Shown: piece by piece, positions 4,095 through 32,995 of the stretch | Position numbering within the stretch: the stretch's first letter is position 1 | Layout: each line of letters starts with the position of its first letter | Source of the DNA: Candidatus Bathyarchaeia archaeon | GTDB taxonomy: Archaea > Thermoproteota > Bathyarchaeia > Bathyarchaeales > Bathycorpusculaceae | Reading direction: 5' to 3' | NCBI GenBank assembly: GCA_049512935.1 | Contig: JBEKWR010000006.1 | Coordinates: 32,001-96,000 of the forward strand | Length of the DNA: 64,000 bases | The notes under the pieces: model-generated | The model's input: only the letters and a program-made list of their open reading frames with translations | What the model was told of the DNA's origin: nothing | Databases searched by the model: none | Program-made: the position numbers and the translations under genes

Positions 4095-4169
4095 TGGAGC
4101 CAGGGGTCGGATTTGCACCGACATAAACAGCTCTGCAGGCCGTCGCTTTCTTTACTCAGCCACCCCGGC
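4095..4169 (-). tRNA. tRNA-Cys(GCA), copy A
   Basis: Cloverleaf GCCGGGG...CUGCAGA anticodon loop...CCCUGGC-U-CCA; perfect T-stem; D-loop lacks canonical GG. Confidence 0.85.
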
Positions 4170-7654: not shown

Positions 7655-7729
7655 TGGAGCCAGGGGTCAGATTTGCACCGGCGTAAACGGCTCTGCAGGC
7701 CGTCGCTTCCTTTACTCAGCGACCCCGGC
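7655..7729 (-). tRNA. tRNA-Cys(GCA), copy B (possibly degenerate)
   Basis: Near-identical to copy A with encoded CCA; one T-stem mismatch. Confidence 0.75.
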
Positions 7730-12100: not shown

Positions 12101-12433
12101 TTAGTCTGTCGTTTTTTTTCCCGCTCTCTTGTAGAAGTTCTTCATGTCTTCCTCTAAATCTTCTCTATCGTATTGAGAGACCGTTTTCTTCTGCTTGAAA
12201 TAGTCCATCATCTCTCTAACAGACACGCCAGAGTCCATTGCAGCCCGCTCCAAAGTTATTGATCCATCAGCATAACGTTTCGCCGCGTACTCTTTCTTCC
12301 AGTCCATCACAGCCTTGTAGAGGAGCTTTCTAAGTACAGTTGAGCGGTCTGTTTGCTCCACGCCCTCTATCTTCTTAATGTCCGATACTAAGGTTTCAGG
12401 CAGTCTTGCAGCAACCATCTCTTCCTTCTTCAT
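12101..12433 (-). CDS. UPF0175 family antitoxin
   Basis: RHH-like N-terminus plus YADGSITLERAA; overlaps the PIN gene. Confidence 0.8.
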   Translation of the reverse strand: MKKEEMVAARLPETLVSDIKKIEGVEQTDRSTVLRKLLYKAVMDWKKEYAAKRYADGSITLERAAMDSGVSVREMMDYFKQKKTVSQYDREDLEEDMKNFYKRAGKKTTD

Positions 12434-12948
12434 TTTCTCACCTTCCTAGCCATGTTAATAATCTCAGTTGTAACATCCGTAGATATCCACATCACCTTTG
12501 CCAGTTTAGCAAAGTCTTCAACCAACTCATCGTAATTAATCAGTTTACAAACGAACGCTTCGTACAACACCATAACGGTGCCTCTATACTCCAAATCCCA
12601 ACTCTTCGCAATGGCTCGGGCTTCTTTATCATCGAGTATTATGAGTGCTTTTTCATCTTTTGCAAGAGTTAAAGCTTCAGCCTCGCCTAAACCAATCCTC
12701 ATCTCACCAATTAGCCTCTGCACTGTTTCATCTTGGCTCTCTGTTGGTTCGGTTACTGTGATCCAGCCTTCCTCAATGGCTTTTTCAATTTCTAAAGCAT
12801 CACTGGCGCCAAGCTCCTTTCCTTTGTCCACACTTTCAACCTTCACTGAGTGCGAGATTATGACTGTACCGTAAAGATCCCGTAGCAGTTTTAGCCTTCC
12901 GATCTTAGCTAAACAGATTAACGGTGACGTATTCGATGTTACTTTCAT
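12430..12948 (-). CDS. DUF3368/PIN-domain toxin
   Basis: SNTSPLI, GLGEAEAL, ILDDKEAR. Confidence 0.85.
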   Translation of the reverse strand: MKVTSNTSPLICLAKIGRLKLLRDLYGTVIISHSVKVESVDKGKELGASDALEIEKAIEEGWITVTEPTESQDETVQRLIGEMRIGLGEAEALTLAKDEKALIILDDKEARAIAKSWDLEYRGTVMVLYEAFVCKLINYDELVEDFAKLAKVMWISTDVTTEIINMARKVRK

Positions 12949-13051: not shown

Positions 13052-13220
13052 ATAAAATTTGGTGGTTCAGGTTTTTGTGAAATTAATAGGTTTTTGACCG
13101 TTGAAAGTGCGGTTTTTTTCAAGCAATATTTATATCAAAAGCGCTGCAATTCGTACCAATTAAACTGTATGTCGCCGCGCACGGTCTGTTCGGTGCGATG
13201 GGAACCCTTGGTGTGAACGT

Positions 13221-14159
13221 ATGCCGTTTAAAACCGTAAAGAAGGATGCGGCAGATGCCTTAACGATAGAATGGGGTTTGCAAGTTAAAAATTACAAGTT
13301 AACCCTTGACAAGAAACGCTGCGTCAGCTGCCAAATATGCAGTTTAGCCTGCCCGAAAGAGGCGATAACAGTGCAGAAGCAGCCTAAAGTTGCGGGGGAA
13401 AAAGCCAAAAGAGCCAAAGTCGACGTTGACTTGGCGAAGTGCAATTTCTGCGGAATCTGCGACGTCACATGCCCCTACGGCGCAATCAGGGTTACTTTGA
13501 ACGACAAGCACGAGCTTAACCTTCTGGCGAAGGACAGCTTTCCACAGCTTGTCAGGGACATAAAAGTTGACACGCGCCACTGCACCAAAGAATGCGTCGA
13601 ATGCGAAACAGCCTGTCCCTTAGGGTTGATAACGGTGTCTAAAGTCGGTTTTGACGGCAAACCAGTGGAAAACGTTGATGCCCTGTCGCCGAGCGCTAAA
13701 GACCGCGTTCAGGTTAGCCTCGCCATCAAAAGCGAGTACTGCCCAACTTGCAGGGTGTGCGAGTTCAAATGCAGCCCAGGCACCATAAAAGTCAAGAAAG
13801 CCTACGACGGCGTAATCGCCATCACACAGGAAAAATGCCCAGAAGGCTGCACAGACTGCCTTGACGTTTGCCCAATCCCAGGCGCGCTTGTTCTCGAAGA
13901 AGACAAGAAAGTTCATGTTAACGATTTGTTCTGCACTTACTGCGGCGCATGCAAAAACGTTTGCCCCGTTCCCGAAGCCCTCATGGTTAAACGCACGGCA
14001 ATACACCACACACCCATCCATTCAGGCGCGTGGAACAAAGCCTTAGAAAGATTAACCTCGCCAGCTGACGCGGCTAAAGAGTTCCGAAGCGTGGCTGGTG
14101 AGAGCAGGCGCAAGGCAGTAGGTAAAAGATTCCCAGCCTTTGAGGAGACGGAAAAATGA
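13221..14159 (+). CDS. Polyferredoxin (FwdF/MvhB-like)
   Basis: Six CxxCxxCxxxC-type 4Fe-4S motifs; directly upstream of hdrA. Confidence 0.9.
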
Positions 14160-14205
14160 GCACATCACAAACTTCCAAAAGATTCAACTTAGAGGAGATA
14201 ATGAA

Positions 14206-16713
14206 ATGAGCAAACCAGAAGCCCCAAAACAACCCGAAACCCAAAAACCAGAAGAACTGCGGATCGGCGTTTTCATCTGCCACTGCGGCATGAACATCGC
14301 AGGAACCGTGGACGTACCATCAGTCGCCGAGTACGCAAGAACCATACCCGACGTAGTCTACGTTAAAGAAAACCGCTACACCTGCGCTGACCCGGGACAA
14401 GAAGAAATCAGAAAAGCAATAAAAGAACAAAAATTGAACCGTGTCGTCGTAGCCGCTTGTAGCCCAAGGATGCATGAGCCAACATTTCGGAAAACCGTAA
14501 GTGAAGCAGGGTTAAATCCCTATGTGTTTGAAATGGCGAACATACGCGAGTTCGCTTCTTGGTGCCATCCCAATGCTCCAAAAGAAGCCACAGCAAAAGC
14601 AAAAGATATCGTAAGGATGGCTGTCGCCAAGGCGAGGCTGCTTAAGCCTCTTGAAACCATGGAGGTTCCTGTAACCAAAAACGCCTTGGTTATCGGCGGC
14701 GGCATTGCCGGCATCAACTCCGCTCTGGATTTGGCGAATATGGGGTTCCAAGTATACCTTGTCGAGAAGAACACGAGCATAGGAGGACACATGGCACAGC
14801 TCGACAAGACTTTTCCGACTTTGGATTGCAGCATATGAATTGAAGGACCTAGGATGGTGGAGGTAAATCGCCATCCTAAGGTCCAAGTAATAACCAATGC
14901 GGACATCCTCAGTGTGGAGGGGTTTGTAGGCAATTTCAAAGTTAAGGTCCGCAAGAACCCAAAGTACGTTGATGCCAAAAAATGTACTGGCTGCGGGGAA
15001 TGCAAAGACGCCTGCCCAATAGAATATCCCAATGAGTGGGATATGAACTTAGGCGTAAGAAAAGCCATCTCCATTCCGTTTGACCAAGCAGTGCCTCTGA
15101 TCTACTCGATAAACAGGGATTACTGCATAGAGTGCTTCAAATGCGTGGATGCCTGTGGTGCGCGTGAAGCCATCAACTTTGACCAAAAGCCCGAAGAAGT
15201 TGAATTGGACGTTGGAGCAATCATTGTAACAACGGGTTGTGACATTTATCTACCATATGATGACGCCACGTACGGCTATGGAAGATACGATAACGTAGTT
15301 ACAGCTTTGGAGTTTGAGAGACTCATCACAGCGGGCGGTCCAACAAGTGGACACGTAGTCCGCTCATCCGATGGAAAGACACCGAAAAGCGTTGCCATCA
15401 TTCAATGCGTCGGTTCAAGGGACGTAAACAAGTACGAATACTGTTCAGGTTTCTGCTGCATGTATGGGCTCAAAGAAGCCATCCTTCTGAAAGAACATTA
15501 CCATGATGACGTGGAAGTCTACATTTTCTACATGGATATGCGCACTCCCGCCAAAGGTTATGAAGAATTCTATCGACGAGCCCGTGAAAAGGGAATTACC
15601 TTCGTCATGGGAAAGCCGTCCCGAATAATGGAAGACCCAAAGACCAAAAATTTGATTATCCGAGCAGAGGACACGAAGCTGGGGCAGCCCATCGAAGTCG
15701 AAGCGGAGATGGTTGTGTTAAGCACAGCCGCCATACCGAGTAAGGGAGCCGAAGAATTGGCCAGCATCCTCCACATAACGCGAGGGTCAGACGGGTTCTT
15801 CATGGAAAGTCACCCGAAACTCAAACCAATGGACACGCCTATGGACGGAGTATTCCTAGCAGGTGCTTGCCAAGGACCAAAGGACATACCCTACAGCGTA
15901 GCCCAAGGAAGCGGCGCGGCTTCAAGAGCTGCCACCATTCTTTCGCAGCCGAAATGGAAGATAGAACCGATTGTCTCCATCGTTGACGTCGCCAAATGCA
16001 GAAACCCGAAAGCAAAGTGCGGTGTATGCGTGAAAAGCTGCCCCTTCGGAGCCATAACCGCGGTTGAGGGGCAACCAGCCCAGATCAACGCAGCTCAGTG
16101 CCATGGCTGCGGAACATGCGTTGCTGAATGCCCACAAGACGCCATAACCCAGATGCACTTTACGGATGAACAAATAACCTCACAAATCAGAGCCGCGCTG
16201 GAAAGGGACCCTGAAGACATTATACTGACGTTTATGTGTAACTGGTGAGGTTACGCCGGCGCGGACCGAGCGGGGACGAGCCGGCTTGAATACCCTCCGA
16301 CGACGAGGGCTATTCGGGTAATGTGCACAGGACGGGTAGACAGAGACTTCGTCATGGAAGCCTTTAGACTGGGAGCCGGAGGCGTATTGATTACCGCCTG
16401 CCATCTTCCCAACGACTGCCACTACATCTCTGGAAACGTCAGGATGAAAGCGCGCATGGATGCCTTAGCTGGCATGCTTCAAAAGCTTGGATTGAGCCCG
16501 CATAGATTCAGGGTTGAGTACGTTTCGTCAGCTGAAGGAGAGAAATTCGTCAGCATCATCAAGGAAATGACTAGTCAAATGCAAGCTTTAGGCAAAGACA
16601 AGATACTCGCGGAAAACGCAAAGCTTCGACCAACCTTAGAGAACATGCTGAAACGCAAAGCAGCCGCCCCAGCCCCTGCAGCTAAACCCGCCGATCAAGC
16701 ACCCGCAAAGTAG
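14206..16713 (+). CDS. hdrA: Selenoprotein HdrA-MvhD(VhuD) fusion, 835 aa, Sec at residues 211 and 681
   Basis: Three track ORFs share one frame, separated only by TGA 14836-14838 ([20 protein letters not shown]) and TGA 16246-16248 ([18 protein letters not shown]). SD GAGGAG precedes ATG 14206; FAD motif VIGGGIAG; QCVGSR; ferredoxin motifs. Confidence 0.93.
14845..14884 (+). promoter_or_regulatory. Stem-loop 6 nt after first in-frame UGA (candidate recoding element)
   Basis: GGACCU-AGGAUGGUG / CGCCAUCCU-A-AGGUCC: 15 bp, one bulged A, 9-nt loop. Confidence 0.65.
16255..16285 (+). promoter_or_regulatory. Stem-loop 6 nt after second in-frame UGA (candidate recoding element)
   Basis: GCCGGC/GCCGGC closing stem, internal tandem GA/GA, GAGCG loop. 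Confidence 0.5.
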
Positions 16714-17033
16714 GCAAAGAATTGGCTCCTGAGCCATTGCGGTTGGGTGGAAGGTTCTTGTGGCAGTATGGGCTGTTCGATACGGATATCTTTAGCCTTG
16801 GCGGTAAGCTCAACACCTAGAGCCTTGACTTTCTGGGTCTTGTCATCTATAATAGCTCACTTTCAACATGTATAATCAACTTATCTTTTTGTGAATTGGC
16901 TAACTGTTAAGAGTCAACTAATGTCAGGAAGTGCCTGCAGATCCTTTCCTCGATTATCTAAAGCACAAGTTTTAAAAACAAATTAAACAATACCAGAATT
17001 TGTCCTCTATTTAATTGCTGAAGGACTGGGAAG

Positions 17034-18215
17034 ATAATCCGATCCAGATGGAAATGCCTCACAATTCTCTGTTTAATACTTATCTTAGTCGCAAGCTTAG
17101 GTTTACCCGCTAAAGTGAAAGCACAATCAAATGGATTAACCCAACAGATTCCGCCGATGGACTTACACCCCGTAACGACTCAGCCTCAGCCTGATGGCGG
17201 CTTCATTAAAGATTGTGGTGTTTCTCAAGACGATGTCTGCAGCTCAAGCTGGATGGTATGGAGGGATTACACGCAGATGGGCAACCCGCTAACTGAGAAA
17301 CTGGAGGGTGGCTTTGGAGAAACCGTCAACGGAACTGAGTTTACTCTGGGCTTCGGTCTAACCTCATTTATTCCTCCACCCCAAGCCCCAAATATTCCGG
17401 TGGGAACGATAAGCCAGACAACAGACAACCCATGCGGAATCTGGATAAGCTGCCAGTACGGAGCATTCCCAATCTGGCTCTACAATGCCACAGACGTGAC
17501 AACAAATTCAGGTCAGGTCACAACAGTCAATGGGTTGCCGAGTGTCACACTTAATGAGACATTCAGCAACATCCAGCTCGACACAGGCGGGCACGGTGAC
17601 TCCACAGTGAATCTTGTTGTAAGCCAACAAATAACTGGTAACGCCACCACCATGATAGCTCAAGTCAATGTCTACGCCGACCTGAGCAACATGCACTTTT
17701 ACCTGCCTGACGGCACAGAGATACCGCAGGGCACCGACTACTCACTTAACCTCCTGTGGATAACTGGATTATCCAATGGAACCGAGTCGGCACAGCTCGG
17801 ATACTTTACTGCTTATCCATATACAATCATCGGGAACTCATTATACTTCATTGTGAACGGCGAAGTAGGCAACATTGCAGGCATAACTTTAAGCGACAAA
17901 TACGTGGAAAGCCAAGGTGCAAATCAAATGTCAAGCCGCCAAGCACAAGTCCAGTTCATAAGCACTAACGCAACTGTGGGTGCACATCGTGCACCAGAGT
18001 GCCTCTGTCTCCAAACGTTCCCAAACCTGACCTACGGAGTTACTACTAGCGTGCAGAGCGACCCCACCATCTACATGAACCATGCATTAATGTCGACTCT
18101 TCCCCTAATCACTCTCATTGTTGTCGTGGCTGTTGTAATTGCTGCATGCGTCGTTCTTTTCCGATATCGAAAAAGATTCAGGAAGGGAGCTAAAAAAATA
18201 AATGCCGAAACTTAA
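17034..18215 (+). CDS. Secreted, C-terminally anchored hypothetical protein (start uncertain)
   Basis: In-frame signal-peptide-like stretch upstream of track start 17115; C-terminal TM plus basic tail. Confidence 0.65.
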   Translation: MIRSRWKCLTILCLILILVASLGLPAKVKAQSNGLTQQIPPMDLHPVTTQPQPDGGFIKDCGVSQDDVCSSSWMVWRDYTQMGNPLTEKLEGGFGETVNGTEFTLGFGLTSFIPPPQAPNIPVGTISQTTDNPCGIWISCQYGAFPIWLYNATDVTTNSGQVTTVNGLPSVTLNETFSNIQLDTGGHGDSTVNLVVSQQITGNATTMIAQVNVYADLSNMHFYLPDGTEIPQGTDYSLNLLWITGLSNGTESAQLGYFTAYPYTIIGNSLYFIVNGEVGNIAGITLSDKYVESQGANQMSSRQAQVQFISTNATVGAHRAPECLCLQTFPNLTYGVTTSVQSDPTIYMNHALMSTLPLITLIVVVAVVIAACVVLFRYRKRFRKGAKKINAET

Positions 18216-18385
18216 TGCTTAATGAAATCCCAAGCTTGTGGCTTGATAGTATTCTGGGACTTTTCTTAATCTAATCATTAAAATCACCCAACGCGCGTTT
18301 CTGAGCGGAATATGTCTATGTTGCCGAGTGAATACAGAAATCGCACTGCGAGAAAAATTATTCAGCAGCTGAAGGCATCAATCGG

Positions 18386-18475
18386 GGCGTCCCACGGCTA
18401 GGCGGTCATAGCATCGGACTTCAAATCCGGTGAGCCCGCAAGGTCTCGGAATCCGATTCCCCTTGGACGCCGCCA
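18386..18475 (+). tRNA. selC: tRNA-Sec(UCA), degenerate copy
   Basis: 90 nt, 4 substitutions vs 19425-19514, three of which break D- and T-stem pairs. Confidence 0.75.
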
Positions 18476-18504
18476 CTATACCACTGCAAAATCTGGCAAG
18501 AAAT

Positions 18505-18942
18505 TCACTTGAAAGGATTTACGACGTTTAGAAAGTTATATTTCTTGAAGTCATCAACATTTTCTGTATAAATGCATTCCACTTTGTCATCTTTGGCTGT
18601 GACCGCCATGGCGCAGTCGAAAATCTTGCCTTTAGTCACTTTCATTTCCTTCGTTAACCTCAAAACGTCCATGACTGCATTCGATGCTGGATTGATCTTC
18701 TCGATTTCGCGGCATTCCCAAAAGTCGAGGCATACATTTACGGCTTCACTTAATTTCATTGGAGACTCCACTCTCTTGGGATTCGTGATTACCGCAAAAA
18801 ATTCATATATCACTTGTGCAGTCAAACATGCATCAAGTTTTCCAGTCATCGCATCCTCAATTACGGCGCTGGCGCGTTTCTGAAAAGGAGATGACTTGTT
18901 ATGGGCGTGAACAAGGATATTGGTGTCAAGTAATGTCTTCGT
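18505..18942 (-). CDS. VapC/PIN toxin lacking a canonical start (ACG)
   Basis: In-frame (T)KTLLDTNILVHAH upstream of first ATG; QVIYEF, IFDC, IYTEN motifs. Confidence 0.7.
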   Translation of the reverse strand, partial: TKTLLDTNILVHAHNKSSPFQKRASAVIEDAMTGKLDACLTAQVIYEFFAVITNPKRVESPMKLSEAVNVCLDFWECREIEKINPASNAVMDVLRLTKEMKVTKGKIFDCAMAVTAKDDKVECIYTENVDDFKKYNFLNVVNPFK

Positions 18943-19168
18943 AGATTTCCTCTCGCGAAAGTTTCCCTTTTATTTTCCCTAAGTCAGGTGGATTCTTAAG
19001 TCTTTTAAGAATTCGGGCTGCTGCATCGCAGCTGCGTGCAATTTCCAATTTGGCTACCCCTTTCTCGACAACCTCGATGCGCAATACGTCGCCTTCAGCT
19101 AGTCCCAGCCGTTCTTGGACTTCGCGTGGGAGGTATACCTTATCTTTATAGAACGTGGTTTCAGTCAT
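18926..19168 (-). CDS. AbrB/MazE-type antitoxin
   Basis: VYLPREVQERLGLAEGDVL; overlaps the PIN gene. Confidence 0.8.
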   Translation of the reverse strand: MTETTFYKDKVYLPREVQERLGLAEGDVLRIEVVEKGVAKLEIARSCDAAARILKRLKNPPDLGKIKGKLSREEIYEDIT

Positions 19169-19424
19169 GCACTCATCATTTACCCAATAAGTTGGGCAAA
19201 ATATAAGCGTTTACCCAAAGACTCACCCAAACCCTTGTGAAAACGAGTAGCAAGAAGCTTGAAAGATTCGATTGAAAGATAAAGCCCGAAGGATAATTAA
19301 TGAACGCTGCAGAAGCTTAAAATGGGTCTACAGCGGTCCAGAGCGGAATATGTTTATTTTGGCGAGTGAATACAGAAATCGCACTTCGAGACAAATTGCT
19401 TCATAGCTGAAAGCACCAGTTGAG

Positions 19425-19514
19425 GGCGTCCCACGGCTAGGTGGTCCTAGCATCGGACTTCAAATCCGGTGAGCCCGCAAGGTCTCGGGGTCCGATTCCC
19501 CTTGGACGCCGCCA
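19425..19514 (+). tRNA. selC: tRNA-Sec(UCA)
   Basis: 90 nt; 9-bp acceptor (one C-U mismatch), 4-bp T-stem, 6-bp D-stem with UGGU loop, 6-bp anticodon stem with CUUCAAA loop, long variable arm, G73, encoded CCA. Confidence 0.95.
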
Positions 19515-19574
19515 TCGCTCACAGTTTCAAAACAGCTCAGAATGAGTTCTCAATAACCAGCATGATGGGCTCGG

Positions 19575-20006
19575 TTGTCACAAGACATAAAAACAATTGA
19601 GGATACCTTACTGGGTATGAAGAGCCGTTCGCTAAAGGGCGAATCCCCGTCTCAGCTGATAGATGCGAGAATCAAGGAGCTTGGCGACTGGCGAGGCGAG
19701 ATGCTCTTACACCTCCGTGCTCTCATCAAGCAAGCCGATCCCGGAATCGTTGAAGAATGGAAGTGGGGGATTCCTGTGTGGTCTCACAATGGATTGGTCT
19801 GCACAGGCGAGACGTACAAGAGCGTCGTGAAGATGACTTTCTCCAAGGGTGCCTCGTTGAAAGACCCCTCGCACCTCTTCAATTCGAGCCTCGAAGGTAA
19901 TACAAGGCGCGCCATTGACTTCCATGAGGGTGACGAGGTTAACGAGAAGGCTCTGATTGCTCTTGTTCGTGCAGCCGTGGCTGCGAATGCCTCGACCCGT
20001 GTCTAG
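19575..20006 (+). CDS. DUF1801 (YdhG-like) protein
   Basis: EEWKWGIPVW, KGASLKDP...LEGNTRRAID. Confidence 0.85.
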   Translation: MSQDIKTIEDTLLGMKSRSLKGESPSQLIDARIKELGDWRGEMLLHLRALIKQADPGIVEEWKWGIPVWSHNGLVCTGETYKSVVKMTFSKGASLKDPSHLFNSSLEGNTRRAIDFHEGDEVNEKALIALVRAAVAANASTRV

Positions 20007-20064
20007 TGTGCCAAACTTCGATAGCTCCCTCTCCTTGCTGAACGGAATGGTCCAGAGGAAGTGA

Positions 20065-21396
20065 TCACGTCACTGTTTTCAAAACGGTGTCTAACCTCTC
20101 TGCTGCTGTGGTGATTTCGTTTTTTTGTATTCCTATGCTGGCGTCGAAGTTGATGTAGGATGAGACGTACTGTGGGCAGCACACTCCGAAATCGTTTTTT
20201 TCCAGCGCTCTTGCGCCGTTGACCCTTGCCGCGTACAAGGCTTTGCCTATTTTCTTGGCGTCTCTTCCATCTAGCGTCATAGCCACGGATATTGGATTGT
20301 AAACATTCAGTATTCGCTGTCCGTGCCTCTCCGCCACCGCCTTGAGGGATGATTCAAGGAACCGCCTGTTTTCTTCCTGCTGGGTTCTCAGCTTCTCGTA
20401 CCCGTCTAATCCTATCGACAGTACGGCTGCTAGGAACTGCGCTATGGGAGCGGCTGTTGCCCTTCCCGCGTAGATTTCAGACACGGCGTCTAGGAATTCT
20501 TCGTTGGGCGCGGCGACTATTGCTCCTCCGACTGGGGTTAGGAAATTCTTGTCTGTGCTCTGGATTATGGCGTCCACGCGTCCTGCGTCGATTGCGCCTC
20601 TTACGAGTTTCATGATTTCGCGGCTCTGCACTCCGAAGGCGTTGTTTATGATATGCGGCACTTTCTTCTCCTGTGCGATCTTTGCGATTTCTTTGATTTT
20701 ATCTGGTTCTCTGGGTGAAAAGAAAGTGGTTGTTGACAGAATCGCGGCGGTATTTTCGTTAACTGCTTTTTCTATCTCTTCTGGGGGAACGTTCACTGCG
20801 TCTCCGCAGACTTCTCCTGCCACTATTCTTTCTTGAAGACCTGCAAGATGAATCGCCTTCAGTGGAGTTTTAAGGTCAATCTGTGGGTAAACAACCTCTT
20901 TTCCCCCAGTTTGGTTTCTTGCGGCGCACAAGGCAAGAGCAAGCGTCATTCCTGTTGCCACAGGAAAAACCACCGCCTTCTTGATGTTTGGAACCCCGAA
21001 CCTTTTCATGGCGTCAGTTGCCAATTTGTTAGCGAAATAATACATGAGAGACCCACCTGCCGCCTTAGGCTGGGCTTCGGTCAGGTCACCTGACCTTCCT
21101 ACCCCATGATGAAATCCAAATGCCAGCTTTGAAACCACTGGAGAAGCAACCCTGCCCTCGCGTTCGCCTAAGAAAACTGCTTTGCTGTCCTTGTCCGAAT
21201 CCATTGCAGACAGCAGATTCAGCAGCGTTTCGATTTGGCTGTCTTTCCAGCCTTCTTTTGGTATTCTTCTTTGCTCGAAAAGTAGTTTTATCGACTGGGA
21301 CTCTGTGCCCAGCACTGTCAAGCCCCTTTCAAGTATGCTCTTTGGGATTGTGTCCTTCAACTTATCAAACGGCAACATAAAACATACCTTTAGCAC
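20065..21396 (-). CDS. spcS: O-phosphoseryl-tRNA(Sec) selenium transferase (SepSecS)
   Basis: GEREGRV, HGVGRSGDL.E.QPKAAG, HIINNAFG, QSTDKNF (PLP lysine), YAGRA. Confidence 0.95.
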   Translation of the reverse strand: MLKVCFMLPFDKLKDTIPKSILERGLTVLGTESQSIKLLFEQRRIPKEGWKDSQIETLLNLLSAMDSDKDSKAVFLGEREGRVASPVVSKLAFGFHHGVGRSGDLTEAQPKAAGGSLMYYFANKLATDAMKRFGVPNIKKAVVFPVATGMTLALALCAARNQTGGKEVVYPQIDLKTPLKAIHLAGLQERIVAGEVCGDAVNVPPEEIEKAVNENTAAILSTTTFFSPREPDKIKEIAKIAQEKKVPHIINNAFGVQSREIMKLVRGAIDAGRVDAIIQSTDKNFLTPVGGAIVAAPNEEFLDAVSEIYAGRATAAPIAQFLAAVLSIGLDGYEKLRTQQEENRRFLESSLKAVAERHGQRILNVYNPISVAMTLDGRDAKKIGKALYAARVNGARALEKNDFGVCCPQYVSSYINFDASIGIQKNEITTAAERLDTVLKTVT

Positions 21397-21549
21397 TGTC
21401 GGGCTCCCGATTTGTCTTTCCCTGTATATAAATTGTTAGTTTTGGCATCGTGGAGTCTGACGCGACTTGACTACATTTGCTGGCATTTAGGGGATGCAAC
21501 CACTTGATAAGCCTTAAATAGCGTTCTCTTGCACAATAAGTATGCAGTG

Positions 21550-21771
21550 ATGGCAATGGGAAGAATAATAATCATAGATGACGATTCTCCCACAACCAGA
21601 GGAAAATTGATAACTTGCCCGATATGCAATGGTACAGGAAAATGCAAACCTTGTAAAGGTACAGGTACTGTTTGGGATAGAAGAGGTCCTTTTATAACAA
21701 ATAATTGCGAGGGCTGCGGTGGAACTGGTAACTGCCCAAGATGTCACGGTGACCGATACATTAGAGTCTAA
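21550..21771 (+). CDS. Small DnaJ-type zinc-finger protein
   Basis: Four CxxCxGx(G) repeats. Confidence 0.75.
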   Translation: MAMGRIIIIDDDSPTTRGKLITCPICNGTGKCKPCKGTGTVWDRRGPFITNNCEGCGGTGNCPRCHGDRYIRV

Positions 21772-21784
21772 CAGGAGTGTTGCA

Positions 21785-21976
21785 TTGGCAAAACCTAAAG
21801 TCATCACTCTCGATCAAATGAAAAACGAATTGTCTAAAACTTATTGTGATGTCCATACGTGCAGTCGAATGGCAGAACTTATTTTTAAAACTGAGGATAA
21901 TGAGTTGTGGCTTTGTTTCTGCAAGAATCATGATCCAAGAAACTGGAAACCAGTCTATCCCACATCTAAGAAATAA
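21785..21976 (+). CDS. Small Cys/His-containing hypothetical protein
   Basis: SD AGGAG before TTG; CxxxxC...CxCxxH. Confidence 0.55.
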   Translation: MAKPKVITLDQMKNELSKTYCDVHTCSRMAELIFKTEDNELWLCFCKNHDPRNWKPVYPTSKK

Positions 21977-22127
21977 CTTGTAAATCTCAAAGCTAAACTT
22001 TGATTATCTAAATATTGTTACTTGTTCGTTAATTCAAACAGGCACACCTCCATTAAACGCCTTTGGCGAGCCCGATGCTCGACACAATTATAAACCCAAG
22101 ACGGCATAGACAACTGGGGAAAACAGG

Positions 22128-24323
22128 GTGTCGCAGAGTTATCCTTACCTGCTTATAATGTGCGGATTGCCTAGTTCAGGAAAGACCACCATCAGCAAAA
22201 ACGTCGCCTCCCTGCTTGAGGACAAACACGAGATATCGACCATGGTCATCAGCTCGGACGATTTTCGGGACATGCTCTCGTACAGCTCCAAAGGATTCAA
22301 GCCTGAGCGGGAAGCGTCGGTGAAGGCTCTTTATGAGAAGGCGATTGCAACTGGTTTGGAAGCTGGTTTTCTCGTCATCAGCGATGACTTAAACTACTAC
22401 AAATCGATGAGGAGCGAGCTTAGGCAGATTGCTAAACGGTCAGGCTCCGACTACGACATTGTCTTTGTTGATACACCCGTTGAGGTAGCCGTCAAATGGA
22501 ACCAAGAACGAGGGTCGCCGATACCGCAGTCCCTCATTGAGGAAATCAATCAGAAACTTGACCCGCCCAAAGGCGACTACAAATGGGACACTCCCCTCGC
22601 CGTTGTCGACCCAAGCAAGCAAAGCTTAGAGGGAATCGCCAGTGCCATCGTTACTGCGGTTCTGAAGAGGCTGGAAAACCCGATTAGGTCCAAGCCCAAA
22701 AAAGTTGTGGAAGACGAGAAATCACTGAGGGCAAGAGGCATTGAGCGGGAAACCCGAAAAGCCATGATGGAGGTCATGACGCGGTACAAGAACCCGGACT
22801 TGGGCATTTCTCTTTCCGCCATCAGAAAAGAAGTGGTGCACAAGGCGCTGGCGGACGGCTTGAAGCCTGTAGATGCGGTCGAATTGTTCCTCAGGGAAGC
22901 CAATGCGGTCGCAAAAAGTTACGCCGTGACTGAAGGCAAGGGCCTCATTCCCGTTCATGTGGGTCTTTTCGGGCATGTTGACCACGGCAAGACAATGATT
23001 GCCCGGCAGCTAACTGAGAAACCTTCGACGGCTGCATTGGACAAGGCACCGGACTCCGCCCGCCGTGGAATGACGCTGGACATGGGCTTCTCCGCTTTCA
23101 CCTTAGGTCCGTACCTGGCTACTCTCGTCGACTTGCCGGGGCACTTCAGCTTGGTCAGGCATGCGGTGGCGGGCGCCAACATAATTGACGCGGCGGTGCT
23201 GGTTGTGTCCGCCGACCTCGGATTGCAGGTTCAGAGCGTGGAGCATTTCGCAATAATCAAAGACGTGGGAATAAAGAATCTTGTAGTTGCCCTCAACAAG
23301 GTTGATTTGGCGTCCAAAGAGAGAATTGATGAAGTCAAGACAAAAGTCAAGCTTCTCCTAAAGGGAACTCCATACGAGAACGCAAAGATTGTGGAGGTCT
23401 CAGCCTTAACTGGCAAGGGAATTGATGAACTCAAACGCGCCTTGCAAGATTCCATCAGTCCACCCATTCGCCAGTGGAATGGCCCGTTCAAGATGCCTAT
23501 CGACCACGCATTCACCATAGCCGGAGTAGGAACTGTCTTAACTGGCACGATTCACCGTGGGAAAGTTAAGGTGAAAGACACCGTTGAAATCAAGCCCATC
23601 GACAAAAAAGGTCAAGTGCGTTCGCTGCGGTCATTCGGCGAGGACAAAGAGGAAGCTATCGCTGGAGACAGGGTAGGCGTCGCCGTCAAAGACCTAAAAC
23701 CTGATGACGCTCACAGGGGTTACGTAGCCGTTTCTCCTGGCTCCATCAGTTCTACCCGCCGAGTGATAATCGAGTTGGAAGTGGACAAGTACTATCTGCG
23801 TCCGTTGACGCCGTACAGCGATGTAGATGTGTTTGTTGGGTCTTATGAAGTGCTGGGAAACGTTGTGCCCGGCGCCGTGGAAGACGGCAAGTTCGTTGTG
23901 AAGCCGTCGGTGAAGGCTCCTGAAAAATGCCTAGTTTACATAGAACTCAGACAACAAGTCGTGGCGGAAAGAGGAGACCACATGCTCTTGATGAACCCTG
24001 GACTCCAAGCCCGCGAATTCCGAATAATCGGCGGAGGAAGAATCACTGAGACAGACAGCAAACTGGAATTCTTCTCAAAAAAGACCAAACAGGGAACTGC
24101 AGGACAAAAAAGAGAAGCCGACGAGTACTCAGTGACGGGTCTCTTTGGCACCTCGGAAGCTGCCTCCAAATTCGTGGGAAAACAAGTTGTTACAGCAACG
24201 GGAGTTACAGGCGAAATCAGGGCTTCGCTGTCATTGGGCGAAGTTTCAGTCAAGTTCAAAGAACCCGTGCACGAAGGCGAAAAAGTATTTCTCTACGTCT
24301 ACAAGAAGTTAAAAATCAAATAG
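22128..24323 (+). CDS. pstK-selB: Fusion of L-seryl-tRNA(Sec) kinase (PSTK) and Sec-specific elongation factor SelB
   Basis: N-terminal GLPSSGKTT, DDLNYYKSMR, NQERG..IP, YKWDTP (PSTK). From about residue 275: GHVDHGKT, RGMTLDMGFSAF, VDLPGH, NKVD, MPIDHAF and a short archaeal/eukaryal-type domain IV (SelB). Confidence 0.95.
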   Translation: MSQSYPYLLIMCGLPSSGKTTISKNVASLLEDKHEISTMVISSDDFRDMLSYSSKGFKPEREASVKALYEKAIATGLEAGFLVISDDLNYYKSMRSELRQIAKRSGSDYDIVFVDTPVEVAVKWNQERGSPIPQSLIEEINQKLDPPKGDYKWDTPLAVVDPSKQSLEGIASAIVTAVLKRLENPIRSKPKKVVEDEKSLRARGIERETRKAMMEVMTRYKNPDLGISLSAIRKEVVHKALADGLKPVDAVELFLREANAVAKSYAVTEGKGLIPVHVGLFGHVDHGKTMIARQLTEKPSTAALDKAPDSARRGMTLDMGFSAFTLGPYLATLVDLPGHFSLVRHAVAGANIIDAAVLVVSADLGLQVQSVEHFAIIKDVGIKNLVVALNKVDLASKERIDEVKTKVKLLLKGTPYENAKIVEVSALTGKGIDELKRALQDSISPPIRQWNGPFKMPIDHAFTIAGVGTVLTGTIHRGKVKVKDTVEIKPIDKKGQVRSLRSFGEDKEEAIAGDRVGVAVKDLKPDDAHRGYVAVSPGSISSTRRVIIELEVDKYYLRPLTPYSDVDVFVGSYEVLGNVVPGAVEDGKFVVKPSVKAPEKCLVYIELRQQVVAERGDHMLLMNPGLQAREFRIIGGGRITETDSKLEFFSKKTKQGTAGQKREADEYSVTGLFGTSEAASKFVGKQVVTATGVTGEIRASLSLGEVSVKFKEPVHEGEKVFLYVYKKLKIK

Positions 24324-28748: not shown

Positions 28749-29084
28749 TCACTCGTTGTCTAAAATTTCTTGAAGGAGAGGCTTTAACGGAGGTAATTCG
28801 CATTTTGCCGTGTCCCATAGATCTTTGAACTCGACTTTAGGGTATTCATGGGCTAAGAAGTTTCTTGCGGATTTCATTCTTGCCCAGGGAATTTGGTTGT
28901 ATTTCTGTCTTATTTCGAGTGGAATCAGCTTCACGTTTTCGCCTATGAGTAGCAGATTCATGGAAACAGCTTTTATCGCCATTTTGTTTTGGAGGAAGCC
29001 CTCGTATGTCAGGTTTTTAGTGAATTCCTCGACTTCTAAGATCGCTTCAAGAATTTCGTTAATGTACACTTTGAAGTTTTTCAT
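28749..29084 (-). CDS. HepT/DUF86 HEPN ribonuclease toxin
   Basis: IGE, IPW, RNFLAHEY (RX4HxY). Confidence 0.9.
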   Translation of the reverse strand: MKNFKVYINEILEAILEVEEFTKNLTYEGFLQNKMAIKAVSMNLLLIGENVKLIPLEIRQKYNQIPWARMKSARNFLAHEYPKVEFKDLWDTAKCELPPLKPLLQEILDNE

Positions 29085-31365: not shown

Positions 31366-31671
31366 TTGATTTGGATGCAGGAAGAACCTGAAATCGCGGT
31401 TGTCGGAACCAAAGGTCAAATAGTTATCCCGCAGCGAATGCGAAAAGAATTGGCGATCAAGCCCAACACCAAGCTATGCGTGTACAAAAGGGACGATAAA
31501 CTGGTTATCATGAAGCTCGCTGTCTCCCCCTTAGATGATATGAAAGCGCTTTTCAAAGAAATAGACAAACAGAACAGAGGAAAAAAGAAGCCAGCCGAGA
31601 ACGAGATTTTGGAGGATATCCAGCAATATAGACGGGAGAAAAGAGCTAAGGAAAACAAATGCGCCGAGTAG
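31366..31671 (+). CDS. AbrB/MazE-type antitoxin
   Basis: KGQIVIP..MRKEL.I. Confidence 0.85.
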   Translation: MIWMQEEPEIAVVGTKGQIVIPQRMRKELAIKPNTKLCVYKRDDKLVIMKLAVSPLDDMKALFKEIDKQNRGKKKPAENEILEDIQQYRREKRAKENKCAE

Positions 31672-32066
31672 TTGTCGACACAAACGTTCTGGTTTCAGCG
31701 GCTATTTGGGGCGGCAAACCCCGAGAGCTTTTGCTCAAGTTGCTCGAGCACGATGTAGTGATATCTTCACCCCAACTGGTTGCTGAGTTATCTGATGTTC
31801 TTGCTAGGCGCGAATCCCTTGTAGGTAATGTTCAAACAAAACGATTCGTTAGAGATTTTGTGCAACAAGCCGAAATGACGAAAGATACAGCCAGATTCAA
31901 ACTGGTCTTGGATGATCCCGATGACAATGTCATTTTGGATGCTGCTTACTCCGGAAAAGCAGATTACATTGTCACTGGCGATAAGCATCTACTCGCCCTA
32001 AAGGAATTCAAGAATACCCAAATAGTCACTGTCAAGCAAATGCTCAACATCTTGGACGAAACCTGA
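31659..32066 (+). CDS. PIN-domain toxin
   Basis: VVVDTNVLVSA, DPDDN, IVTGDKHLL. Confidence 0.9.
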   Translation: MRRVVVDTNVLVSAAIWGGKPRELLLKLLEHDVVISSPQLVAELSDVLARRESLVGNVQTKRFVRDFVQQAEMTKDTARFKLVLDDPDDNVILDAAYSGKADYIVTGDKHLLALKEFKNTQIVTVKQMLNILDET

Positions 32067-32318: not shown

Positions 32319-32687
32319 TTATTTCAGCTCTTCAAGAACTTTTCTAAATTGCAGTTTGAGATTTGGAAGAATTTCCTTTGCTGTCACCCACAAAAGTTCC
32401 TTATCCGCGCTGAAATATTCGTGAGTAAGATCAGTTCGCATATTCCTTAATCGATCATACGGAATGCGGTAGGTGTAGAACAAGTTTCTAATTTGCTTAT
32501 GCTTAGATAAGACGCGTACAGCCTCACCGATATTTCTTACGAGGTCATCAACCGCATAGACCCTTATTTCGTCTTTTAGAAACTGTTCACATGTTAACCC
32601 TTTAGTAATCGCTTCTATTTTCTCAATGTAAAAAATGATTTCTGACAGGTAAAGCAGAGGGCTTCTTTCCAGATGATCTTCACTCAT
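32319..32687 (-). CDS. HepT/DUF86 HEPN toxin
   Basis: IGEA, RTDLTHEY. Confidence 0.85.
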   Translation of the reverse strand: MSEDHLERSPLLYLSEIIFYIEKIEAITKGLTCEQFLKDEIRVYAVDDLVRNIGEAVRVLSKHKQIRNLFYTYRIPYDRLRNMRTDLTHEYFSADKELLWVTAKEILPNLKLQFRKVLEELK

Positions 32688-32995
32688 ACTGGTATCGCTT
32701 CACTGAGCACGTGGTCTTTAATGACTGGATTTAGATATTTCTTTGAGACAACATCTACTTTAACGTGCAGTTTTCTTCTAAGGTAACTTCTAAGACCCGC
32801 CACTAACAGCAGATCTGCCCCCTCAGAATAAGTTACCAGAATGTCAATATCGCTTTTTTCGGTCTGTTCTCCGCGTGCGTAGGACCCAAAAATATCTACG
32901 GTTTCCACCTTGAACCGTTTCTTTAACGTGGGTTTTAATGCCTGAAGCTGCTGTTTCACTTCGTCAAGTGACCTTTGCATGCGAAGTAACTCCAA
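32684..32995 (-). CDS. MntA-like nucleotidyltransferase antitoxin
   Basis: FGSYARGEQ...SDIDILV. Confidence 0.9.
   Translation of the reverse strand: MELLRMQRSLDEVKQQLQALKPTLKKRFKVETVDIFGSYARGEQTEKSDIDILVTYSEGADLLLVAGLRSYLRRKLHVKVDVVSKKYLNPVIKDHVLSEAIPV

Follow-up and report, generated by a model that had tools for sequence, protein, structure and literature searches.

A 64,000-nt stretch of archaeal DNA, referred to here as the window (contig JBEKWR010000006.1, positions 32,001 to 96,000; G000:C6:32001-96000), carries within about 11 kb a cluster of genes for the synthesis and insertion of selenocysteine (Sec). It belongs to genome G000, a 2.30 Mb assembly from a Candidatus Bathyarchaeia archaeon that consists of 49 contigs and is 93% complete. 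The central components are an HdrA-MvhD fusion gene with two in-frame UGA codons, a tRNA-Sec, SepSecS (O-phosphoseryl-tRNA(Sec) selenium transferase), and a protein in which PSTK is fused to the elongation factor aSelB. The cluster is best explained, with a probability of about 0.85, as the chromosomal Sec system of a Bathyarchaeia archaeon, of a kind that has already been described. A first-pass annotation, made from the letters of the window alone, had proposed that a PSTK/SepSecS-type Sec system is clustered here with its client, and this proposal is supported. In addition, the HdrA-MvhD coding region contains two RNA hairpins, one just downstream of each UGA, which may act as Sec insertion signals.

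The HdrA-MvhD gene (14206..16713, + strand) has 836 codons from its likely start, ATG 14206, which is preceded by a purine-rich, ribosome-binding-like stretch. A single frame is open from 14140 to 16713 once TGA 14836-14838 (UGA 1, U233/Sec233) and TGA 16246-16248 (UGA 2, U703/Sec703) are read through. Residues 38-685 align to solved HdrA (5odc_A, E 8e-252) and residues 693-825 to MvhD chains. UGA 1 is aligned with the Cys of the DCSIC motif in solved HdrA, and UGA 2 with the Cys of the CNWC motif in MvhD homologues. Both TGAs are in frame in six related genomes (G187, G370, G229, G232, G217 and G394) and in two metagenome contigs; in G382 and L076, where the contigs end within the gene, one site each is covered and kept. 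At site 1 and at site 2 alike, TGA is kept in 10 of the 10 orthologues that cover the site. Since the UGAs are kept in all covering orthologues, are aligned with Cys and are flanked on either side by conserved protein sequence, both are read, on comparative grounds, as Sec codons, as the first-pass annotation had it.

The tandem second copy of HdrA-MvhD in G229 and G217 has Cys at both positions (L020, L123). Among 80 HdrA loci from species-representative genomes, 21 Bathyarchaeia-like Cys-type orthologues (at least 62% identity around site 1) have TGC or TGT at site 1, and many loci labelled Anaerolineae, Chloroflexota or Deltaproteobacteria combine TGA at site 1 with Cys at site 2. Apparent TGAs in the HdrA match of G110 and the MvhD match of G394 were rejected as ordinary gene ends. 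Two HdrA homologues of the Sec-positive Bathyarchaeial genome G037 (C30:3863-6226; C3:8127-10502) show one in-frame TAG each in the search output, which may reflect a gene boundary or read-through.

HdrA-MvhD is the sole selenoprotein gene found in G000 by a limited TGA scan, which required at least 40 open codons before the TGA and at least 20 after it. In the scan, 2409 in-frame TGAs had an open frame before and after them, and a competing open reading frame (ORF) filter reduced these to 393, of which the two HdrA-MvhD sites rank 1 and 2 by downstream folding. A crude codon-usage score did not discriminate and was replaced by this filter and folding energy. Family searches of G000 for NiFe-hydrogenase (PF00374) and MvhD (PF02662) gave no further TGA-interrupted gene. 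The status of sole client is weakened by the 40/20-codon limits, through which Sec codons near protein ends would escape, and by the 93% completeness of the genome. Because the machinery and the sole client found are neighbours, retention or loss of the one probably goes with that of the other. Among the segments of the scan with the highest G+C and the strongest folding, many came from contigs C41 and C45, whose composition looks unlike the rest of G000 and which may be binning contaminants.

The intact tRNA-Sec(UCA) gene, at 19425-19510, scores 64.5 bits against the Rfam gathering score of 47 and is also called by ARAGORN. Its cloverleaf fold (-42.1 kcal/mol) has stems of 9 bp (acceptor, with one C.U mismatch), 6 bp (D, with a loop of 4 nt) and 4 bp (T), and the anticodon UCA; a G and then CCA are DNA-encoded at its end. 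The first-pass annotation had counted two tRNA-Sec genes, of which the other is degenerate. This copy (18386-18471) reaches 46.7 bits and so narrowly misses the Rfam threshold, is not called by ARAGORN, and is changed at 4 of 91 positions, which breaks two of the four T-stem pairs and one D-stem pair; it gives no cloverleaf fold. The best reading of it is a duplicate in decay. The tRNA-derived repeats noted earlier are likewise present, as just one direct duplication of ~180 nt: copy A (18295..18475, + strand) holds the degenerate tRNA-Sec and copy B (19333..19514, + strand) the intact one, each with its upstream region, and the copies are 96% identical in the tRNA part and 80% in the upstream part.

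Between the two repeats lies a cassette (18505..19168, - strand) of a PIN-like ORF (18505-18849) and an AbrB/MazE-like ORF (18926-19168). Both had been taken as toxin-antitoxin modules; the ORFs are there, and their matches are weak (24.5 bits against a cut-off of 24.7 for AbrB/MazE; E 0.088 for PIN, over profile positions 31-119 of 120 only, with the N-terminal part missing). The degenerate copy occupies the syntenic place of the single tRNA-Sec of G187, in which an AbrB gene and no PIN gene stands between tRNA-Sec and SepSecS. More distant relatives have a single tRNA-Sec, which directly adjoins the 3' end of SepSecS. In G000 the syntenic copy has decayed, and the second copy and a DUF1801 gene adjoin SepSecS. 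We read the duplicated tRNA-Sec and the AbrB/PIN cassette as a local duplication and insertion that is now eroding and lies outside the mechanism.

The DNA upstream of tRNA-Sec (window 18295-18385 and 19333-19424; L019:10729-10911) resembles a remnant of MvhD C-terminal coding sequence (tblastn, 43% over 65 aa in L019). A Cys-type HdrA-MvhD copy follows the Sec-type copy in G229 and G217, and in G229 it lies directly before tRNA-Sec. The MvhD-like remnant before tRNA-Sec and the persistence of Cys copies in these two genomes suggest an ancestral Sec/Cys tandem pair of HdrA-MvhD, of which the Cys copy would have decayed in most genomes.

SepSecS (20065..21396, - strand) matches PF05889 over the length of the profile (E 1.8e-116, positions 1-388 of 389). 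It falls in a 90% cluster of 153 members; among the 40 read, 20 are named, and the 14 names listed all denote this enzyme. The 731-aa PSTK-aSelB fusion is encoded at 22128..24323 (+ strand). Its first half matches the KTI12/PSTK family (PF08433, E 2.2e-36, residues 8-220) and is predicted to have kinase activity. The aSelB half consists of an EF-Tu-type GTPase followed by archaeal SelB domain III (PF21440), and its residues 276-722 align to residues 20-475 of the 482 of M. maripaludis aSelB (4ac9_A, E 8.3e-75). The protein ends in a short archaeal domain IV, with 9 residues past the aligned part, and has no bacterial-type C-terminal winged-helix SECIS-binding extension (SECIS, selenocysteine insertion sequence). 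Nearly all of the 120 listed relatives of the fusion are ~720-740 aa long with both domains. These matches confirm the earlier placement of SepSecS and PSTK-SelB within ~11 kb. The selenophosphate source lies on contig C11, where a 339-aa ORF with DsrE-like and TusA-like ORFs next to it matches SelD (TIGR00476, 233.9 bits; cut-off 125). The protein is of the Cys type, with Cys at a position where Sec stands in other archaeal SelD proteins, and the Cys in its N-terminal loop is aligned with the Sec-containing loop of the SelD of G110. The first-pass annotation had seen a missing selenophosphate source together with unconserved UGAs as fatal to its proposal; SelD is present, and each UGA is conserved in all 10 orthologues that cover its site.

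From the established roles of these families, SerRS would charge the intact tRNA-Sec with serine, and the PSTK half of the fusion would phosphorylate that serine. SepSecS would then make Sec, using selenophosphate supplied by SelD, and the aSelB half would bring Sec-tRNA to the two UGAs of the neighbouring HdrA-MvhD gene. The product is predicted to be a flavin/iron-sulfur electron-bifurcation module, co-transcribed with a polyferredoxin. An additional step is proposed here: the signal for Sec would be a hairpin in the coding sequence, 6 nt downstream of each UGA.

A system of this kind is already on record, and the earlier suggestion that Bathyarchaeia have no described Sec system fails. Mukai et al. 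2022 (Front Genet, PMC8762117; section 3.4.1 and Fig. 9 legend) describe PSTK and aSelB as one ORF in "diverse Bathyarchaeota", together with tRNA-Sec and a typical Sec gene cluster, and the corresponding passage of a review (PMC9499178, 2022) repeats all three. A 2024 paper lists a Bathyarchaeota SepSecS, a 2017 paper reports Sec in a related crenarchaeal group, and public records already annotate these proteins, as in the names of the SepSecS cluster. The lineage is thus one already known to use Sec, which the first-pass annotation had itself named as refuting its proposal, and the gene cluster adds one more genome to that record. Compared with the system in the cited section and legend of PMC8762117, G000 is alike in the single ORF for PSTK and aSelB, in the clustering of SepSecS, tRNA-Sec and a selenoprotein gene, and in its host class; it differs in the duplicated tRNA-Sec, one copy of which is decaying, and in that no SepRS or SepCysS was found. 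The fusion was proposed in the same source to shield Sep-tRNA(Sec), the O-phosphoseryl form, from SepCysS. The best sepS match in the 93% complete genome reaches 50.3 bits against a cut-off of 380.65, and no second PF05889-like (SepSecS/SepCysS-like) gene was found in it; the published context, SepRS-SepCysS without SepCysE, was not found in G000, where SepCysE itself was not searched. As SepRS and a second gene of PF05889 type were both not found, the reason published for the fusion may not hold in G000, which counts against that part of the published argument.

The system shares with those of Methanococcales, Methanopyrus and Asgard archaea the PSTK/SepSecS route, an aSelB with a short C-terminus, a 9/4-type tRNA-Sec, and HdrA and the MvhD/VhuD subunit as selenoproteins. 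PSTK and SelB are separate there, whereas they are fused in G000. Furthermore, the SECIS elements of those archaea are placed, in the portions of the literature consulted, within the 3' untranslated region (UTR), or for one gene in the 5' UTR, with a GAA_A bulge or a eukaryote-like core, whereas in G000 the hairpins lie in the ORF after the UGAs and no conserved UTR element was found.

Hairpins H1 (14845..14884, + strand) and H2 (16255..16285, + strand) each start 6 nt 3' of their UGA. In H1, a lower stem of 6 bp is followed by a single unpaired A (3' side) and an upper stem of 7 bp, with ~13 nt in the loop. In H2, a 6-bp G+C stem leads into a short upper helix, which a symmetric internal loop of tandem GA/GA interrupts, and the loop is 5 nt long. 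Both are present in 10 of 10 Sec-type orthologues. The H1 lower stem is shifted in L123 and has lost one pair in L076, and H2 is changed only in L124, by two synonymous differences that both lie in its apical loop. In a codon alignment of seven orthologues (836 codons), synonymous variation across the gene reaches its two deepest troughs at H1 and H2; windows as low as these number 12 of 823 and 8 of 826, respectively. The native fold energy was reached by none of 1000 synonymous recodings of H1 and by 16 of 1000 of H2. At site 1, folding of the 60 nt that follow the codon gives -20.7 to -27.4 kcal/mol in Sec-type genes (n=7) versus -6.8 to -17.1 kcal/mol in Cys-type genes (n=21), and the two ranges do not touch. 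An RNA-level constraint in the coding region is thus well supported at both hairpins. The third-deepest trough of synonymous variation in HdrA-MvhD is at window 15508-15550, with 3-4 variants in 11-14 codons.

Comparable hairpins follow Sec codons in three more Bathyarchaeial genes. In G110, from a different family, a SelD gene (L022:12994, + strand; contig C92) adjoins the PSTK-aSelB gene and carries a TGA where G000 SelD has its N-terminal Cys; the product is predicted to be a selenophosphate synthetase of the Sec type. Downstream of this TGA, after 6 nt, begins a hairpin of 9 bp, and 20 of 1000 recodings are as stable. In G103, from a third family, two tandem genes (L024:1052-3463, - strand; contig C27), a few kb from PSTK-aSelB and SepSecS, encode secreted or membrane-anchored paralogues whose 157-aa aligned part, with 46% identity, spans an in-frame TGA that belongs to a U-x-x-C motif. 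In both genes an 11-bp hairpin comes 7 nt after the TGA; for one paralogue, 0 of 1000 recodings are as stable. A compensatory U-A to C-G difference between the two stems was judged by eye. The UxxC proteins may represent an undescribed selenoprotein family.

Taken as a Sec insertion signal, the hairpins would mean that Bathyarchaeia read UGA through structures within the ORF, 6-7 nt downstream, with archaeal machinery and a PSTK-fused factor that has no known SECIS-binding domain. This reading is put forward tentatively, at somewhat less than even odds. A fusion of PSTK and aSelB is found in every Sec-positive Bathyarchaeial genome examined, and distant metagenome HdrA-MvhD homologues with two UGAs (41-58% identical) have no adjacent hairpin; on these grounds it is suggested that the fusion, or some further partner, reads the local hairpin. 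As in bacterial SECIS elements, the signal would follow the UGA closely, the apical loops of H1 and H2 starting ~19-20 nt after the UGA by our own count. Bacterial HdrA homologues also have a hairpin after the same Sec codon, which lies further downstream and differs from H1 and H2 in sequence and size. The machinery of G000 is, in contrast to that of bacteria, archaeal (PSTK and SepSecS, not SelA), and its elongation factor is without the bacterial SECIS-binding domains.

Several observations weigh against hairpins in the ORF as the Sec signal. The Sec-type orthologues are close (~80-92% nucleotide identity), and true covariation is scarce: the stem changes seen are one G.U-compatible change, the register shift in L123 and the broken pair in L076. 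Energies overlap at site 2, where Cys-type genes fold at -7.4 to -26.2 kcal/mol (n=20) and Sec-type genes at -22.9 to -25.9 kcal/mol. For the second of the two G103 paralogues, the folding energy of the hairpin does not reach significance (141 of 1000). The aSelB half is without a domain known to bind a local hairpin, and a UTR element that differs between species would escape the alignments used. If the proposal is true, it would represent a third layout of Sec recoding, which combines the bacterial signal position with archaeal/eukaryal enzymes. A compact UGA plus ~40-nt hairpin, together with PSTK-aSelB, could then be tested in the existing Methanococcus reporter and would offer a natural comparison with bacteria and Asgard archaea. 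Archaeal selenoproteins of this class, the Sec-type SelD and the UxxC surface proteins among them, would be overlooked by searches that rely on a UTR SECIS.

A stem-loop 6 nt downstream of the UGA is reported from some eukaryotic selenoprotein mRNAs. The hairpins could likewise be genuine RNA elements that only stimulate decoding locally, with the true SECIS in a UTR of low conservation or at another place in the operon. This is unlikely, although the short archaeal C-terminus of aSelB without bacterial SECIS-binding domains would fit it, as would the ~70 nt after the stop that are shared by the close relatives G000 and L015. The 3' UTRs of seven orthologues are T-rich and unrelated, and no conserved hairpin was found in their alignment; in L020, L123 and L124, T-tracts follow within a few tens of nt of the stop. 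RNAalifold on the 3' region of six loci gave two weak helices of 4-5 bp and nothing more, and a conserved 3' UTR SECIS was rejected on these grounds. On the 5' side, matches of 23-29 nt with 90-100% identity in L019, L021 and L123 correspond to an A/T-rich box (13115..13140, + strand) ~80 nt upstream of the polyferredoxin start, which we interpret as the putative operon promoter. No other conservation was found upstream of 13217 in distant loci, the close relative L015 excepted, and a 5' UTR SECIS was rejected because the one shared stretch is this promoter-like box. Rfam at a permissive threshold, applied to the locus and 10 related loci, gave no match to a SECIS family; the hits were tRNA-Sec, a weak sR40 match and one flpD RNA motif (51.3 bits against 40). 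The last, at L178:2824-2869, lies ~275 nt 3' of the second UGA in a distant two-UGA homologue of HdrA-MvhD from a metagenome. In all, the 3' and 5' regions of 6-8 orthologous loci yielded no conserved hairpin, a result that a fast-evolving element could escape.

The literature favours a UTR position for archaea in general. Reviews of 2022, 2024 and 2026, in the parts consulted, place archaeal SECIS elements in UTRs, which would speak for local stimulation rather than signalling by H1 and H2. According to the same portion of the review literature, no archaeal SECIS-binding protein is known, and how archaeal aSelB finds the UGA is an open question. A literature search on SECIS with Bathyarchaeota, Thermoproteota or PSTK-SelB, covering text outside figures, supplements and subscription papers, found no description of such an element, and the words SECIS, hairpin and stem-loop are absent from the main texts of two Mukai papers, figures and supplements aside. 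As far as this search reached, hairpins in the coding region have not appeared in print as a Sec signal.

The named relatives of the PSTK-aSelB fusion, HdrA, SepSecS and TrpRS are labelled Candidatus Bathyarchaeia or Bathyarchaeota, one short contig being labelled otherwise; those of the fusion are 85-86% identical and lie on contigs of up to 2.7 Mb. These labels place the host in the Bathyarchaeia, as had been supposed from the sequence. In G187, of the same genus, the outer flanks of the cluster are the same as in G000, and because of these shared flanks the contig is judged not to be chimeric. The order polyferredoxin, HdrA-MvhD, tRNA-Sec, SepSecS, fusion recurs in G187, G382, G370, G229 and G232, and tRNA-Sec adjoins SepSecS in six of seven loci. 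Full-length SepSecS (E below 1e-100) is found in 12 of 401 sampled genomes of the class, among them 4 of the 40 from the genus of the window and 4 of the 12 from a sister genus; the 77 further matches are partial and weak, presumably from related PLP (pyridoxal phosphate) enzymes. TrpRS identity was tried as a species proxy and dropped, as it does not separate the two genera.

The first-pass annotation had inferred from the clustering of machinery and client, and from the toxin-antitoxin genes and tRNA repeats, taken as marks of mobility, a transferable selenium island that moves machinery and client together between genomes. The patchy SepSecS distribution, the toxin-antitoxin genes beside and within the cluster and the duplicated tRNA gene agree with such an island, and in G324, which is Sec-less and belongs to the same genus, the CBS-domain gene and TrpRS are ~29 kb apart, with other DNA between them. 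This is the only Sec-less genome of the genus with both flanks on one contig, the others being too rearranged to define insertion ends. The features of an integrative island were nevertheless not found. G+C content across 12-26 kb is 0.455-0.517, ordinary for a window that ranges over 0.41-0.55; integrase, transposase and recombinase families were not found among the 33 ORFs scanned in 5.2-33 kb; and the ~180-nt direct repeats bracket the ~1 kb antitoxin cassette and not the Sec cluster. The flanks are common to G187, the components are unclustered in G394 and G217, where they are scattered over the chromosome, and in a SepSecS tree of 11 sequences the eight from the family group in a single clade (100/99 support), separate from those of three other families, which fits vertical descent with losses. 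A mobile island is on this evidence improbable; the patchy distribution fits repeated loss as well as transfer.

Other toxin-antitoxin-type genes lie around the cluster: UPF0175 and PIN-like genes at 12101-12948, and two HepT-like genes and a PIN_3 gene at 28749-29084, 31659-32066 and 32319-32995. The second HepT-like gene (32319-32687) adjoins a nucleotidyltransferase. G394 (contig C1) and G217 (L016, L018, L123, L124), of the same family as G000, have HdrA-MvhD and TrpRS that are 86-87% identical to those of G000, as close as other relatives, whereas their SepSecS is far more divergent (74% and 69%), as is the fusion attributed by a tentative match to G394 (P0079, 54%). Their machinery was either replaced or evolved faster; this divergence, which speaks for the island, hints at transfer within the family.

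Low synonymous variation and strong folding could also have causes other than recoding, such as codon or G+C constraint on an iron-sulfur motif, mRNA stability or close relatedness. The peptide motifs at both sites are very conserved, the sampled Sec-type genes are closely related, and some Cys-type genes fold nearly as well at site 2. However, Cys-type orthologues with nearly the same peptides have not kept the stems, and the two deepest troughs of the gene fall exactly after the two UGAs. The arrangement recurs in unrelated proteins of other Bathyarchaeial families, and the distant two-UGA homologues without an adjacent hairpin indicate that a UGA by itself brings none, so that causes of this sort are held to be very improbable. 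Finally, although standard gene callers split the frame into ORFs 14140-14838, 14854-16248 and 16321-16713, the idea that the UGAs are ordinary stops in three separate or broken genes can practically be set aside, since both are in frame and aligned with Cys in every orthologue, a complete Sec machinery adjoins the gene, and solved HdrA continues through site 1. For annotation, this means that HdrA-MvhD-type genes are split by gene callers.

The first gene of the operon encodes the polyferredoxin (13221..14159, + strand; 312 aa), which matches Fer4_7 (E 4e-17) and related families and has several 4Fe-4S dicluster motifs. Its end overlaps the part of the HdrA frame before the ATG (from 14140), and its position upstream of HdrA is kept in L015, L019, L020 and L021. 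The DUF1801 gene (19575..20006, + strand) was not seen at the equivalent place in the relatives examined and is probably outside the Sec system. A 366-aa membrane-anchored ORF in the cluster had no family match in the profile search, and two small ORFs follow SepSecS before the PSTK-aSelB fusion. Elsewhere in the window, two tRNA-Cys(GCA) genes lie 3.5 kb apart at 4095-4169 and 7655-7729 (- strand), with scores of 53.9 bits and, for the second, a lower 41.8 bits.

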